NCBI RefSeq assembly: GCF_039541115.1
Contig: NZ_BAABFP010000008.1
Location: 558,001 to 621,684 of the forward strand
From: Angustibacter luteus
Lineage (GTDB): Bacteria > Actinomycetota > Actinomycetes > Actinomycetales > Angustibacteraceae
Direction of reading: 5' to 3'
DNA length: 63,684 nt
This document shows, in pieces, positions 45,801 to 57,800 of the stretch. A program made the position numbers. Numbering within the stretch: position 1 is the first letter of the stretch; each line of letters begins with the position of its first letter.

Positions 45801-48800
45801 CCGTCACAGGGTCGAGGCTACGACTATTCGTCGCCGATGATGTCGTCGATCGCCTCGAGCATCCGCTCCTTCTCCGACGGGCGGAGCTTGAGCACACGGT
45901 CGTAGGCCAGGTCCAACTTCGAGCGCGACCTACGACCCGCAGCCATCCAGTTCCGCACGTCCCTCAGCTCGGCCCTCTTGAGGGCGCGCACGGCGGGCAG
46001 GACCTCGTCGAAGTCCTCGGGGTCCGGGAGGACGTCGCGCGCGGCCTCGTTGTGGTGGGCGCACTCGGTCTGGAGGTCGTCCGGGCTGGCGCCGCCGCGT
46101 CTCGCCCCGGGGACTCGGTGCCCGATCGTCATCCGTGCGAAGGAACCAGGTTCACCGGGGTACTCTTCGCCGGCCCCAACGCCGCAGACGACGCACCGTC
46201 GGCCGTCGCGCTCGATCACGACCTTCTCGGTGAGCTTGGACACCTTGTCCCGGGGATTGCGCTCTCCCAGCCAGACGCGCGTGCCGACGGCCTCCAGGCG
46301 GTAGGTGTTCGGCGGAAGACTGTGGTCGTCCTTGTAGGACCTAATGATCCAGTCGTCGGGCCGGAGGGCGCGCAGCCTGCGGTTGAGCTGCTCGGCGTCG
46401 TCCGCTACGCCATCAGTGCCCAGCCCCTCGCGCAGTTCCCGCATCGTGAACCGGTCCCCGACCTCTGCCTCGAAGTAGAGGTAGGCCGCCAACCGCTTCT
46501 CGCCACCGTAAGGCTGCCATTTGGTGCCGGGGGTTAGCTTGAGGTGCCACCACAGCGTGCCGTCGGGGGACTCTGGGCCGTCGGTCTTGTATTGCTGCTT
46601 CACGTGACCAAATGATTGCAGAGAGCAACCGGGGGGCGCAGCAGAACGACCTATTTCGACGCCTCCAGCGCGGCCGCGATTCTCCGGCCGACTGCCTCGG
46701 CAACGGGCGGCGGGAAGGCGTTCCCGACTTGGCGGTAGGCGGCGGTCTTGCGGCCGGCGAAACGCCAGTCGGTTGGGAAGCCCTGCACTGCCGCTGCCAT
46801 CCTGACGGTGAGCCGGGGGAGACCTTTGAAGCCGGGCGCTGGGGGGCCGTCTGCGATGCCCATGCCGTCGACGCCAAGGTCCCGCCAGGCCGCTTTCGCT
46901 CGCGTCGGACCGACGTCCGCGCCGCCGTGCTTCTTCGAGCCACCGACCAGCGCGGGTGCGATGCCCTGGGCCTTCTTGGCCCAGTCGCCGGCGCCCTCCC
47001 AGAGCAGTTCCCCCATCAGCGGTTCGAGGAGTTCGCCGACGGTCACCATCACACCGTCAGGTTCCGGCCAGGTGAAGTGCGTGGCCGCCTGGGGCTTCAT
47101 CAGCACCAGGATCGCCCGAGGCCTTGACTGCGGCACCCCGTAGTCGGCGGAGTTGAGCAGCTCCCAGCCGCAGTACTCGTAGCCGAGCTCCTCGAACTCC
47201 GCCACGATCTCGGCCCGGTACGCGTCGAACTTCTTTCCCAGAAGACCACGTACGTTTTCGATCATGACTGCCTGCGGATCGAGTTCACGTGCGAGGCGGA
47301 CCATTTCCGGGAACAGGTCGCGCTCGTCCTCGCGTCCAAGTTGCTTTCCCGCCAGGCTGAACGGGGGGCAAGGCACCCCCCCGGCCAAAAGCGTCACGCC
47401 ACGAAGGTCGCCTGCAGGCGTCCACTCGCGGACGTTGCCCTCGAGGACATCCCACTGGGGGCGGTTGTCACGGAGCGTGGCGCAGGCATGGGCATCAATC
47501 TCGACGCACGCCAAGTGGTCGAACCCTGCCCGCTCCAGCCCGAGAGCCTGTCCCCCAGCTCCGGCGCATACTTCGACGGATGTGTACCTGCTCACTACGT
47601 GGTCCTCTGGCTAGTCTGCGGAGGCGGGAAGCCGTAGACAGGATTTCATCACAGAGCGCCGACACTCCTGCGACACCACGCTGGATGGACTCGAACGTAT
47701 GAACGAACAGCCGGGCGACCGACCTCCTGCACCCTGCTCAGGGACGGGCCGGCGCCCCCGCCCCCGTCCTACCGCAACTCGGGTGCCGTAGCTGTTGCTG
47801 TGCGGGGTCGACGCCGTTTCGGCGGAGCGACTAGTGATCTCACTCGAGCGCAACCTCCTTGCAGTGGTTGCGTACTGGACAGCTGCGGCAGGTCGCCGCA
47901 TCGTCGATGCCCGCCGGCAGGAATCGCCCGGGGGTGGGAGCGATAGCCGAAGCACTCGGACTCGCGCGAGTTGAGGCTGCCTTGTAGGCCCGGTCCAGTG
48001 GCCGCGACCCAGACTTGGACCCGGCGAGCGTGAACAGCCATTCTGGATCAGCAGAACGCGACCCCTGAGGCTTGATCACTGCGCGGTCGACGGAACTCCC
48101 GCGCTGACCCGGCGTGAGAAACGGCCAAAGCCGGTTGGCAAGGGCGCTCGCGGCCAGCTCGTTGTTGACGAAACCAAGTCGCACGAGCGCGTTCCTCATG
48201 TTGCCGTAGAGCATGAGTAGATGGTGGGCCGCTTGAAACGCGGCCGTCGGACCCACTGCCCACTGAAGCGCGAACCTGCGTGGGCACGCCTGCCCTGCCC
48301 CTGCCGCGCGGGGGTCTATCTCTGCAACGGCCAGGTCCAAGCTCGCGGCGTCACAGTGAGCGTCCACGGTGAGCGGTCGCGCTGTGAGCGGTGGGAGGTC
48401 GGACCCCGGAGCCACGATCTCCGAAGGTAGGCCACCGGCTCGCTGACGTACGGCTGGACTGTCGTAGTCGGGGACGGTGAGAAGCGTGACAAGTGGCGAC
48501 GCGTTTTGAAGCTCTCCACCTACCCTTGCGATCCAACTGAGGGTCACCCCGCCGGTTTGCTCCACGCCATCAAGCCCTAGCCATAGCAAGTACAGATCGC
48601 CCAGTGCACCAAGTTCGGCCCGCGCCTCCAAGATCTCCAGCGTGGCTGCCGCCATGGTCGGGGAACGGCGCAGGTCTTCGAGGCGAAGCGGCCACCCGAC
48701 ACTTGGCCCGCGACTGGGAAAGGTGGTGGCACTAAGGTTCGCCAGGTGCACATCGCCAGGTGTTCGGGCAAAGCCAAGGGCATCAAGCCCGCGGAGCTCG

Positions 48801-54800: not shown

Positions 54801-57800
54801 TCGAGTGCCTGCGACTGAGCCGACCGCCGCTTAGTCTGGACGCGGAGTACGGCGAAGATGGCTTTACATTGGGTGATCTCGTCGATCAGCAAGCCGATCA
54901 ACCCGAACACGTCGAGGTCGGTGGCTTCTTTCCTGAAGATGTCTGGCCATGGTTGTCGCGCCTGGATGCCCGAGGCAGGGAGGTCGTGCTGCGTCGGTTC
55001 GGGTTTCATCCCTTCGCTGAGCAGCAGACCCTCGACGAGGTCGGCCGCGCATACGGGGTTACGCGGGAACGGATACGCCAGATCCAGGTCGTGGCGATGC
55101 GTCAGCTCGGTGCGATGGCGGCGGAGCCTCGAGCTCGGCCTTGATGAGCCCCAGGCGCCGGCAAGCGCCATCACCAAGTTGTTAGGGGAGTGGAACTGCT
55201 CCCACTCCCGCTCCTACGAGAACGATCGGAGGCGACTCGACAACGCAAGCAGGCCATCGGCGTCTTCAGGCACGCTTCATCGTGACGGATGCCGAGCGTG
55301 AACTGCGTCCGGACGCGCCGCCCGCATCCATAGCGCGCAACCAGCTACCAGATCGGCGGCGAATGCTCACCGTGCGCGTACGGTGCAGAAATGGCTAACC
55401 CCGTGGACGACGTGATCCGTCAATTCATGATGCCGAAGGCCGTTGCGATAACGGGTCGCTCGTCGAGTATCACGAACTCGTTCATCAACTCCATCATCCC
55501 AGTCGTCATCCCGACGCCTGAGGAGATTCGCAGAGCTCTCGAGATTCTCGACATGACGGAACAGGTTCGCTGCGCCTACTGCGCCGATCCTCACACCGAG
55601 TGGGACCACCTCCGACCGTTAGTGATCAACAAGCAGCCGACCGGCTATATCTCCGAGATCCACAACCTGGTCCCTTCATGCGGAAAGTGCAATCAATCAA
55701 AGGGAAACAAGCACTGGCGGGTCTGGATGCTCGGGTCCTCGCCCCTGTCCCCTGCCTCACGGGGGGTCTTCGACCTCGACGTGCTGGCGCTGCGACTCGA
55801 GCAGTACGAAGCTTGGAGTGCCCCCACTCGCCTCGACTTCGCCTCATTGGCCGGCCCGGCCCTCTGGGCCGAGCACTGGGATCACCACCGGCGGATCCTT
55901 GGCCTCATGCAGGAGGCGCAAGTCGTAGCCACCTCGATTCGCGAGAGTGTAAGGGCCGGCTACCTGGCACAAGCGCCGACGCGATATTCAGCCACCGACT
56001 GATAGTCGGGCGGCACGACACCGAGCCCGCCTGGGTCACGCATGCCGCTCGGAGGATGCCCGTGTTATCGAGGGTGCCGTGCATCAGAACTCGGCTCAAC
56101 GGCAGCGATTTCGAGCACTCAGCCGGACGCGCAGCTACGTCCCGAGCATGCGAGGCAACGCTTCAATGCTCAGCGTGGCGCCTGGCCACGCCGAGCCCAG
56201 AATCAATTTATCCGTGTTCATTACACCCAACGGTGGCGCCAAAGGCGCCAGCCTTGTGTCTAATAGAGTGGCGGCGCCGGATAGGCGCCTTGTCGATACT
56301 GAAGCAGATGCTTGATGCATTGGCAGGCCGCCCCCATAGGGGCGGCCGTGCCTTGTTTCCCACCCCCACCCCTTTGTTCGCCGAAAGAGACTGACTCAAG
56401 AGAACGCGTGAGTACCTGCAGGTCAGCGGCCTGCCGACACGTGCGGAACGCTCCCCGTGGGAGCCGTGGGCGTAGCAGTTTGAGGCGAAACCGCTACGGC
56501 GATCGATCCCCGCAACTTGGACACCGGCCCCTGCCGAGCCACCCTTGTTGGGCGACGTGTCGAGGCAAAGCGAGACAGCGCCGACCCGAGCCTGGCGCAA
56601 GAAGGCCAACGCGCACGGCCTGTCTGATCGACCGATCCAGACTCGAGGCGACGCTCTCGAGGGTCCCCGGTCCGACTTCTCCTTGTTGATCGACGGCAAA
56701 ATAGCCCGACCAACTCTCCCTGCCGAAACGGCGCGTGCCCGCTCTTCTCCATGCGCGAGACCGCTAAGAACCAGACCCTAAGCCAACCCGGGACAACCCC
56801 CCTCGCTCCCCCGATCTCTGCCGCCCAGGACTGAGCGACCGCCGCCCAGGTTCCTGAGCGGTCCTGAGGGCCAGCGAAATGAATCTTGTGCGCGACCCTG
56901 GCTTTGGCTGCCGATGCGCTTGCCTCGGCGGTGCCTGGCAGTGCCTTCAGTTGCTTGCTCATGGGACTCGACAAGACCAGCCACCACCGGAACCTGACCT
57001 TGCCCTCGCGGGACTCCCCAACACGAGTCTTCCGGGGAGGTCGGCCTCGAGCCGGTCGCCGTCCGATCGCGGAGGCCAGCCAGCCCGATTCACGGCCTCA
57101 CCATTCGATGGGCCGCTGAAGCGGCATCCTCATTCAGCCAGCGCTCCAGTTCCGACAACCGGTAGCGGTACTGCTTGCCGATCTTGTAGCGGGGCACACC
57201 AGATCTGGCGGCACAGTTGTGCAGCCAGCTTGGCGGCTTGTCCAGGAACCTGGCCGCCTCCCTGGTGCTTACAAACGGCTCAGGCAACTTGCTGGTCAAG
57301 ATCAGTCCTCCTCATCTTGGGCGCATTGAGTAACGCTAGACCCCATGTAATCGTCTTTCCATTAAGTCTGTCAAGACTCCATGCATGGACATGGGCCAGG
57401 GGGTCGGCTAGACTCACTGTCATGACCAACGGCGCATCGGAGACCCGCCAGTCACTCGGCGCGAGGCTGCGCAGCCAGTTGGGCTCCCAGCCCCTCGCCG
57501 CCCTCCCGGCGGCCCCGCAGGCACAGACGCACGTTGAGGATGACCGCATCACCACGATGTGCCGCTTGGGGGAGGACTGGATCATCGGCATCGAGTTCGT
57601 GCGGGACGAGCTCGACCTCGACCGCCCGGTTGAGCTGACAATCCTCGCGGCCCGCAGTGACTCGGACGTGGCGCTCACCACCAGCGTGCTGCGCGCCATC
57701 CCACTCGGACAGCTCATCGATGCTGCCCGAGCGGTATCCCGCGACGCATCGGTGCTTTACGACGCGTACGAGGCCGCGATCGCGGAAGAGCTGATCGTGT

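Follow-up and report, generated by a model that had tools for sequence, protein, structure and literature searches.

The window, a 63,684-nucleotide stretch of the Angustibacter luteus genome, carries on a mobile island two overlapping genes, here called A and B, whose products would form a heterodimer built like AddAB and RecBC. We judge it somewhat better than an even bet (about 0.55) that the pair is a defence-island machine, as yet undescribed, which attacks foreign DNA at its ends and degrades it, a role suggested by its gene neighbourhood. The genome-wide survey's note had described an AddAB-like machine of two subunits that spreads horizontally, belongs to a defence setting and is absent from PADLOC; the att repeats around the island, the absence of the pair from all 14 other genomes of the family Angustibacteraceae, the AddB fold of B and the predicted complex agree with this description. 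The positions it gave for A, B and the sigma factor gene all proved to be open reading frames (Table 1), and its domain calls on A and on the sigma factor, including the PADLOC MzaA match, were recovered. Literature searches retrieved no description of the A+B pair.

Architecture of the predicted helicase-nuclease pair

The ATG start codon of B overlaps the stop codon of A (TGATG). A directly precedes B in all 55 loci with DNA upstream of B, as well as in four of four Bacillota plasmid loci and on one IMG/VR contig; it should be noted that all loci were gathered through B, and that the Bacillota clade was sampled via six plasmid records (four examined) and one viral contig. The predicted A+B complex scored 0.80 against 0.00 for the best control, a value that may rest on likeness to solved AddAB; the mark used is reached by 116 of 157 solved pairs and by 2 of 215 mismatched pairs. 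The runs agreed in at least 84% of contacts, with a partner pLDDT of at least 78, and the predicted contacts link residues 796-959 of A to B, where they take in the staple region (772-779 and 881-909). In the AddAB structure the iron-sulphur cluster is likewise placed near AddA (PMC3321194).

Table 1. Features of the island, in window positions
Feature	Position	Strand	Evidence or remark
Left att repeat, copy of tRNA-Thr 3' end	44259..44307	.	98% identical to 59284-59332
HEPN-like protein, island cargo outside the pair	44786..45397	+	HEPN_RiboL-PSP E 2e-4, below cut-off
Vsr very-short-patch endonuclease	45394..45897	-	TIGR00632 above cut-off
HNH-type endonuclease	45824..46603	-	three PHROG HNH families, best E 4e-5
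C5 cytosine DNA methyltransferase	46651..47595	-	PF00145 2-322 of 324; DruM2 model E 8e-141
Subunit B, 914 aa: scaffold of AddB/RecC type, an inactivated helicase without Walker A	47840..50584	-	
Shrunken iron-staple domain of B (predicted), C767...C899, C902, C908	47861..48286	-	no nuclease catalytic motifs
Subunit A, 1091 aa: nuclease, middle domain and SF1A (UvrD-type) motor	50584..53859	-	
SF1A motor of A	50659..52818	-	motifs intact
Middle domain of A, residues 238-345, conserved	52825..53148	-	VIA Z 6.8
N-terminal Hjc-like PD-(D/E)XK nuclease domain of A, residues 7-168	53356..53841	-	model, Foldseek and VIA
Codon 73 of A, Thr in place of the family's catalytic Lys	53641..53643	-	
RpoD-like sigma-70, 382 aa, defence-island subfamily (MzaA-like), optional neighbour	53996..55144	+	Sigma70_r2/r3/r4
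Stand-alone HNH endonuclease, island cargo	55391..56002	+	PF01844 above cut-off
Excisionase-type HTH protein	57090..57299	-	HTH_17 E 4e-10
Tyrosine integrase	58071..59249	+	PF00589
tRNA-Thr(cgt), integration site, right att repeat inside at 59284-59332	59284..59360	-	

A new AlphaFold model of B (pLDDT 90, pTM 0.84) again found AddB first in Foldseek (4cei_B, E 9e-13, TM up to 0.53 on the query), followed by RecC (E 3e-11) and AdnA (E 2e-8). A Walker A pattern occurs in none of 74 homologues and in none of the 33 members of a distant clade. The four cysteines C767, C899, C902 and C908, already reported as invariant by the survey, are conserved in 74 of 74 aligned homologues, and the same pattern (one Cys, then CxxC-x5-C) is found throughout the distant clade; from sequence, we predict that they hold a 4Fe-4S iron staple. 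The spacing between the first and second Cys is 125-156 residues in the B family versus about 217 in the AdnA of the host, and the staple domain is about 85 residues shorter than that of AdnA. The conserved nuclease set (E, D, (D/E)xK, QxxxY) is found in B across neither the 74 nor the 33 aligned members, and B was rejected as the active nuclease. The earlier qualification of the partner as nuclease-like is thus right for the fold and wrong for the catalytic motifs; the nuclease sits on the N-terminus of the helicase. The only Pfam match of B, to WhiB, is a chance CxxCP match below the cut-off and was discarded; B has no match in PADLOC, and a PDB sequence search with its alignment gave nothing useful.

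The motor of A displays all expected motifs (AGAGTGKT at 365, DEFQD at 614, motif III at 642, NFRS at 682, TVHKAKGLE at 973 and motif VI at 1048) within the Pfam domains UvrD-helicase (348-665) and UvrD_C (967-1067), and its PADLOC matches are at the level of GajB. A stops about 25 residues past motif VI and has no C-terminal PDDEXK domain. The N-terminal 350 residues, listed as unknown in the survey, have a recognisable nuclease domain at residues 7-168, with the PD-(D/E)XK core fold and its E...PD...(D/E)xK signature (E15, P57-D58, E71-x-K73). The model of this domain (pLDDT 91) matched Hjc in Foldseek (E 5e-6) and in VIA (Z 10.6, rmsd 2.8 Å over 111 residues). E15, D58 and E71 are invariant, and K73 is present in 40 of 40 (alignment A2) and 36 of 36 (alignment A5) homologues. 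No Pfam family covers the region among 37 members, a PDB sequence search with its alignment returned nothing useful, and the ESM Atlas gave leads below 0.8 only, one of them with Hjc in 21% of members. The middle domain shows a weak likeness to a TrmB/PLD-like fold, which is a lead only, and is present in the Geobacillus homologue as well.

In the Angustibacter luteus copy, a one-base change replaces Lys73 by Thr; it could stem from an assembly error. This copy may not cut DNA. Among the relatives, two Bacillus homologues carry a NERD domain above the cut-off at the front of A, the Exiguobacterium A has an unrelated N-terminus and the Geobacillus A has no N-terminal nuclease domain. These comparisons suggest that the front slot is a swappable effector position, Hjc-like, NERD, other, or empty in Bacillota relatives. 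Since the Geobacillus copy is devoid of the domain and the Angustibacter luteus copy of Lys73, cutting is apparently not always kept.

Like AddAB of Bacillus subtilis (PDB 3U44, 4CEH, 4CEI), the pair combines an SF1A motor subunit with an inactivated-helicase subunit ending in a (predicted) four-Cys iron staple, from adjacent coupled genes, and its predicted interface involves the 2B domain of the motor and the staple region. Unlike AddAB, A has no RecB-family nuclease at its C-terminus, and B has neither an active RecB-family nuclease, the first and second Cys of its staple domain being some 130 residues apart, nor the Walker A motif of AddB; nuclease activity would instead reside in a domain of Hjc-like or NERD type at the N-terminus of A, and the pair is rare, island-borne, redundant with host machines and 11% identical. 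The overall fold also resembles that of RecBC(D) and of the actinomycete AdnAB, and in Escherichia coli RecBC, too, the motor subunit bears the single active nuclease whereas the nuclease fold of its partner is dead. By contrast, the RecB nuclease is C-terminal, RecC has no Fe-S staple, and the pair is without RecD. AdnA retains Walker motifs and an active nuclease (PMC3321194), and the host AdnA shows the nuclease motifs that B does not.

Proposed function and gene neighbourhood

Sequence and models show A as an intact 3'-5' SF1A motor and B as an inactivated-helicase clamp that keeps the predicted staple without a nuclease site. The sole nuclease is the Hjc-like PD-(D/E)XK domain heading A, and other lineages put a different nuclease in this position. 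We infer that the staple domain of B and the 2B domain of A grip a double-strand DNA end, as in AddAB, after which the motor would enter and unwind the DNA while the front nuclease cuts processively. Such ends would be supplied by phage or plasmid DNA that enters the cell in linear form, or by the neighbouring restriction enzymes when they cut, so that a single cut would lead to destruction even when a phage blocks the RecBCD or AdnAB of the host. RecBCD and AddAB are repair machines and also targets of phage inhibitors (PMC12904381, PMC9836394), and such inhibitors can be machine-specific, T7 gp5.9 blocking RecBCD and not AddAB (PMC9836394). End degradation fits less neatly with the fact that Hjc-type nucleases are usually dimers acting on branched DNA (PMC1874659), and it gives no account of how the host chromosome is spared.

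The pair is counted as accessory because the host has AdnAB-like and RecBCD-like operons elsewhere in its genome and because B was found in none of the 14 other genomes of the family and in none of the 400 genomes of the phylum searched. The same distribution argues against a housekeeping AdnAB/RecBCD identity; the pair appears rare, accessory and redundant with these host machines. No viral locus was found for the clade of the Angustibacter luteus pair, and one for the distant clade.

Across loci, the pair neighbours type II and IIG restriction enzymes, DrmD, MzaB/C/D, McrBC and ABC-three-component genes. The strongest neighbour is a C5 methylase: of the 15 loci of the same clade whose flanks extend at least 5 kb on either side, 14 have one no more than 5 kb away, compared with 2 of 6 control defence loci, the control set being small and the loci related to one another; Vsr is found in 11 of 19 loci. 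Nevertheless, the methylases belong to different families and vary in orientation and distance, and in Bacillota a C5 methylase is present in only two of four loci, 9-10 kb from the pair; the link may therefore be plain island co-residence. This methylase and Vsr neighbourhood, together with the AddAB-type architecture, could also indicate that the pair helps repair: it would resect breaks made in the host chromosome by the island restriction enzyme or Vsr and feed recombination, letting the island settle in a new host. We regard this as the less probable reading, at about one chance in five, as the host already has two resection machines, the effector slot swaps nuclease families as in conflict systems, and the DNA examined at two of four Bacillota loci and at L010 holds no C5 methylase.

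The folds closest to the N-terminal domain of A are all junction resolvases (in VIA, Hjc, then Hje at Z 9.0 and RecU at Z 8.6), which would fit a motor that drives its nuclease onto forks, D-loops or Holliday junctions in phage or plasmid DNA during its replication instead of free ends. Hjc is however near the minimal PD-(D/E)XK core and is also what a restriction enzyme domain matches best (PMC1874659), the staple required by AddAB to bind ends persists in B (PMC3321194), and the slot takes NERD too; such branch-specific attack is therefore unlikely.

An AddB-like partner is not described, in the excerpts consulted, for NERD-UvrD fusions, Gabija GajB, ARMADA ArmD or Nhi, all of them helicases of defence systems that carry a nuclease, whose matches to A are limited to the motor motifs. 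Gabija was set aside, no GajA match being found among the ten island proteins scanned, as was ARMADA, with no ArmA-C match in the island.

The divergent sigma factor gene

The genome-wide survey's note had proposed a dedicated sigma factor, 42% identical to SigA. Compared with the primary-type sigma factor of the host, identity is 39% over 281 columns, rising to 73% and 80% in the regions that read the -10 and -35 elements. Its best NCBIfam model (E 2.5e-62) and only PADLOC model (1.8e-38) is MzaA; with 382 aa against a 726-position model, 212 bits against a cut-off of 800 and none of MzaB-E turning up in a scan of ten island proteins, it represents a known kind of passenger and not an Mza system. 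Six further relatives lie beside drmA/drmB at DISARM loci where the pair is absent, one of them fused to an MzaB-like domain.

Of the 37 non-duplicate loci whose upstream DNA could be read, 7 have the sigma gene next to the pair; none of the four Bacillota plasmid loci does. In a quick motor tree, the six sigma-bearing motors all fall within one 10-row subclade, in which L001, L002 and L022 have an intact pair without sigma. A small gene fills the slot upstream of A in 26 of 37 loci and is probably, as a guess, a third, regulatory or inhibitory part; its product had no ESM Atlas match, and no longer fused form was found, which is weak evidence. That the operon needs its own sigma factor to be switched on, making a self-contained three-gene system, would account for the divergent head-to-head layout kept in seven loci, for the small gene and sigma never occurring together (0 of 33 loci), and for a sigma tree (one host row, in a wrong reading frame, disregarded) that repeats the motor groups (L003, L008) and (L004, L005, L017). 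This congruence indicates that, inside the subclade, sigma and motor travelled together for some time. The presence of sigma in a minority of loci, the sigma-free pairs of the same subclade, the DISARM relatives and the primary-like promoter-reading regions nonetheless make this scheme improbable, slightly more so than branch-specific attack; no clear shared motif was found in seven intergenic regions, nor a sigma-70 consensus promoter between A and sigma, and MzaA is itself optional in Mza-like systems (PMC9523054). We thus consider sigma an optional passenger of one subclade and not a fixed part of the system.

That the Angustibacter luteus copy is a decaying remnant without present function, whatever the family does, is very improbable: Thr73 and the broken copies elsewhere (frameshifts in L011 and L012, an interruption in L041 and, on one Bacillus plasmid, a split B) would fit, but both frames are whole, the motor motifs and four Cys are intact, and the codon 73 change is the single base discussed above.

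Returning to end degradation, a bolder and more tentative version, which we hold to be rather doubtful, is an undescribed anti-phage family derived from a re-engineered AddAB: an end-loading motor-clamp that would have lost its two original nucleases, retained the Fe-S staple for binding DNA and acquired a slot into which an effector nuclease is plugged (Hjc-like, NERD or another). It would amplify restriction-modification in general, escape the phage inhibitors directed at host RecBCD/AdnAB, and be controlled by the small upstream protein or, in one lineage, by a spare primary-like sigma factor that maintains transcription of the operon once a phage has disabled the sigma factor of the host. 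If true, such a mobile and rearranged version, its nuclease replaceable, would be a repair machine turned modular immune effector. With the pair one could test directly if a dedicated partner that degrades ends is required for restriction, and B would offer a naturally occurring protein in which the iron staple serves DNA binding apart from its other job, support of a nuclease. Primary-like sigma factors riding with DISARM, Mza and the pair also raise the testable question of how defence islands stay transcribed.

The island and its cargo

The island spans 15 kb at tRNA-Thr and is bounded by 49-bp att direct repeats; in genome G003 both flanks are joined directly and the island is absent. The earlier observation of a low-GC island with an integrase at tRNA-Thr was reproduced, with a GC content of 0.640 for the A+B pair and 0.623 for sigma against 0.722 for the genome, the integrase at 58071-59249 and tRNA-Thr(cgt) at 59285-59360. 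Genome G002 carries other cargo at the same att site, with a single clear defence-type match (SoFic) among 25 proteins scanned, which does not establish the site as a hotspot for defence genes.

The HNH-type endonuclease at 45824..46603 is, from its position, the probable restriction partner of the methylase. None of nine 4- and 6-base palindromes tested as target site of the methylase is depleted. The methylase had been called truncated and M.NaeI-like; it is without a tail of about 100 residues present in two longer PADLOC models, but its catalytic domain is complete, as it spans the whole Pfam model and positions 4-314 of the 329-position DruM2 model in PADLOC.

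Architecture of the pair and its proposed function

The genome-wide survey's note had placed a helicase (subunit A), its partner (subunit B) and a sigma factor on this island, and all three open reading frames were found at those positions (see the table). The start ATG of B overlaps the stop of A, and the sigma gene is transcribed divergently from A across a gap of 136 bp.

Every helicase motor motif is present in A, and a C-terminal nuclease is absent. The N-terminus, previously described as unknown, displays E15, P57-D58 and E71-x-K73 in the homologue alignment; the catalytic set of the PD-(D/E)XK family is a D...ExK triad (passages of PMC1874659). 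Residues 1-345, modelled from 37 sequences (pLDDT 91), gave an archaeal Hjc as top Foldseek match (E 5e-6), and alignment of residues 7-166 to Hjc with VIA-align yielded Z 10.6 and an rmsd of 2.8 A over 111 residues. A second conserved domain, residues 238-345, matches a TrmB/PLD-like fold only weakly (VIA-align Z 6.8).

Homologues of B numbered 82 by word-index search and 436 by profile search (E up to 0.001), and the latter also reached a distant clade (809 alignment columns, probability 100%). No family was assigned to B in PADLOC, NCBIfam, PHROG or Pfam, and the 33 members of the distant clade gave only faint Cas4 matches at the Cys tail. The model of B (pLDDT 90, pTM 0.84) matched AddB first, then UvrD, RecC and AdnA. 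Cysteines C767, C899, C902 and C908, which correspond to the iron-staple pattern of AddB, are invariant in 74 of 74 sequences. The stretch from the first to the second cysteine measures 125-156 residues in B, shorter than the roughly 217 of the AdnA that the host itself encodes, and B has no conserved nuclease motif within this stretch. Likewise, Walker A was detected in none of the 74 sequences of the window's clade and in none of the 33 of the distant clade. Since AddAB needs its Fe-S cluster to bind DNA and carries it close to AddA (passages of PMC3321194), the staple can outlast the nuclease in B.

Complex prediction with A 690-1085 and B 315-912 gave a score of 0.80, the best control reaching 0.00; the mark for this score is reached by 116 of 157 solved pairs and by 2 of 215 mismatched pairs. 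The runs shared at least 84% of contacts, with a partner pLDDT of at least 78. The predicted contacts to B involve A 796-959, which is domain 2B by reading of the motifs, and the surest pairs involve B 772-773 and 887-890, next to the staple cysteines. Because a solved complex of like kind exists, this prediction shows likeness to AddAB and not binding of the window's copy.

The most likely reading, with a probability of about 0.55, is an A-B heterodimer that would grip a duplex DNA end, after which A would translocate along the DNA while its front nuclease degraded it. The targets would be foreign DNA, and the ends would be those of linear DNA entering the cell or would arise by restriction cleavage. 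Models and conservation show the architecture; end loading, degradation and defence we infer. RecBCD is inhibited by many phages, and DNA ends are known to set off defence (passages of PMC12904381). As gp5.9 blocks RecBCD and not AddAB (passages of PMC9836394), such inhibitors might fail against a divergent spare machine.

The pair would work like AddAB/RecBC but lacks three of the defining features of AddAB; it is a variant of a known machine type. Full-text searches, which covered passages of main texts and few subscription papers, returned no description of the system or of its sigma factor. Term look-ups found no description in the passages covered of 10.1101/2025.01.08.631966, PMC12458937, PMC12839542 and 10.64898/2026.09.30.754977, and no occurrence of the terms in those of PMC10542128; the AddB-like gene with repeat arrays in passages of PMC10910872 belongs to a different system. 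We regard the pair as a good candidate for a defence system that has not yet been described.

Island, neighbouring genes and distribution

The island is bordered by a 49-bp repeat corresponding to the 3' end of tRNA-Thr, and its GC content of 0.648 lies below the genome value of 0.722. The same site is empty in one genome of the genus (G003) and holds different cargo in another (G002), where about 38 kb (L072-L073) include a SoFic gene adjoining the integrase end. Besides the pair and the sigma gene, the island in the window encodes a HEPN-like protein, Vsr, two HNH nucleases, a C5 methylase whose catalytic domain is complete, an excisionase-type HTH protein and the integrase. The sigma-to-integrase stretch carries, besides an HNH gene and the excisionase, an unassigned 183-aa ORF and a gene for an HTH regulator. 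Neither a conjugation gene nor a replication gene could be recognised there, so that the island may need a helper for movement. A second stretch of lower GC (0.64-0.69, against 0.71-0.76 beyond) lies at the start of the window.

Coordinates of features in the window and in other loci
Feature	Source	Position	Strand
Subunit A	window	53859-50584	-
Subunit B	window	47840-50584	-
Sigma factor	window	53996-55144	+
Border repeats	window	44259-44307; 59284-59332	
Sigma-to-integrase stretch	window	55391-58123	
183-aa ORF	window	56423-56974	
Second lower-GC stretch	window	1-10000	
Other tRNA-Thr cargo	same-genus genome	G002:C1:4492000-4532000	
Small upstream gene, examples	other loci	L001:6111-6716; L002:6110-6694; L007:6249-6704	
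RecBCD-like operon	host contig C2	G000:C2:425736-434469	
AdnAB-like pair	host contig C2	C2:551505-558067	
Viral locus	IMG/VR contig	L088:5718-17550	
Genes following B	Bacillota	L067:14731-16386; L068:14640-16288; L070:14640-16288	
Large proteins after B	other loci	L009:12794-16105; L010:13549-16539	

Neighbours were counted in non-duplicate loci that extend at least 5 kb to each side, of which there are 19 (15 of the window's clade, 4 from Bacillota). A C5 methylase lies within 5 kb in 14 of the 15, the exception being L010, and at 9-10 kb in two of the four Bacillota loci; Vsr occurs in 11 of the 19. Among loci whose flanks add up to at least 8 kb, 24 of 28 had a methylase; 2 of 6 control defence loci had one. 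The loci counted are related and not independent. Methylases and linked nucleases vary by locus (NgoFVII, MvaI/BcnI, HpaII, MutH-type, HNH), so that the association recurs without amounting to a fixed operon. DrmD-like helicases, type IIG enzymes, MzaB/C/D, McrBC and ABC-three-component genes were also seen nearby. That the pair serves as a repair helper for the linked restriction-modification genes is unlikely, yet it is the best placed of the alternatives to end-directed degradation.

Loci of the pair came from genomes (14) and metagenomes (52). A immediately precedes B in all 55 loci that include sequence upstream of B; the remaining 11 start inside B. Named hosts include Arthrobacter, Knoellia, Nocardioides, Isoptericola, Acidimicrobiaceae, a planctomycete bin and a Chloroflexota bin, and B was not found in the 14 other genomes of the family and the 400 genomes of the phylum that were searched. 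As the host also carries an AdnAB-like pair and a RecBCD-like operon, named from motifs and gene order, A and B constitute a third machine.

The distant clade was found on six Bacillota plasmids, with A before B in all four that were opened. Here the front domain of A varies: two Bacillus copies match NERD above cut-off, Exiguobacterium has an unrelated sequence in its place and Geobacillus lacks it; in the viral pair, the N-terminus of A (1090 aa) looks like NERD by eye and B is extended to 1422 aa. Conflict systems typically combine a conserved engine with a nuclease that can be exchanged. A machine cutting specifically at branches, to be set beside the Hjc-like fold of the window's clade, seems more doubtful still than a repair helper.

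On the viral contig, the gene preceding A may encode a WYL-type regulator and a SNF2-looking helicase follows B. Downstream of B, three Bacillota loci encode an acidic protein of 61-74 aa and a second UvrD-like helicase of 470 aa, possibly a four-gene form of the system. In L009 and L010, a gene directly downstream of B encodes a large protein (about 1000-1100 aa) that matched nothing in Pfam or PADLOC.

The gene upstream of A

A small gene of 150-200 aa, on the same strand as A and 11-149 bp upstream of it, was present in 30 loci (26 once the duplicates L038, L044, L047 and L063 were removed) and absent from the window. Its two-domain product had no match in Pfam, PADLOC, PHROG or Atlas, and the small gene is probably what the system usually has as its third gene. 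The sigma gene occupied this slot in 7 of 37 loci (six and the window), never alongside the small gene, and four loci (L022, L031, L054, L065) had neither, leaving aside the duplicate L023 and L041, whose 5' end is interrupted. A quick tree of 47 motors, which did not include the frameshifted L012, placed all six sigma-bearing rows within one 10-row subclade (support 93) together with two small-gene rows and two with neither.

A search with the first 175 residues of sigma in 400 genomes of the class revealed six further relatives (L082-L087, in G253, G267, G349, G171, G191 and G105), all adjoining DISARM drmA and/or drmB. They make up a subfamily of RpoD-like sigma factors; three are long fusions (975, 1055 and 1198 aa), one of which has an MzaB-like C-terminus. 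B was found in none of five of these genomes and was also absent from G105.

The survey's main novelty, a dedicated sigma factor by which the system switches itself on, finds no support as a trait of the system in general. In favour of such a system, two groups of the motor tree recur in the sigma tree. The factor is 39% identical overall to the host primary-type sigma and reaches 73% in regions 2.3-2.4 and 80% in region 4.2, so that nothing points to a private promoter. We consider a dedicated-sigma system improbable, slightly more so than branch-specific cutting. MzaA is reportedly the sigma factor of the Mza system, which makes a sigma gene in a defence island a known kind of passenger. MzaA is present in few Mza-like systems only (passages of PMC9523054).

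Lys73 and broken copies

Lys73 of A is conserved in 40 of 40 proteins of one alignment of A homologues (A2) and in 36 of 36 of another (A5), and is Thr in the window's copy. Lys73 is retained, for instance, in L001 from Arthrobacter sp. N1 (small gene, A and B) and in L005 from Nocardioides potassii (sigma, A and B). Judging from established PD-(D/E)XK chemistry, Thr73 would weaken cutting, or it may be an assembly error; we put the odds of poor cutting by this copy at about one half. That it is a dead remnant and that this is the whole story is very improbable.

Broken copies were also observed elsewhere: L011 and L012 are two bins with many frameshifts (decay or sequencing error), the 5' end of A is interrupted in L041, and B lies in two pieces in L068, a Bacillus plasmid.
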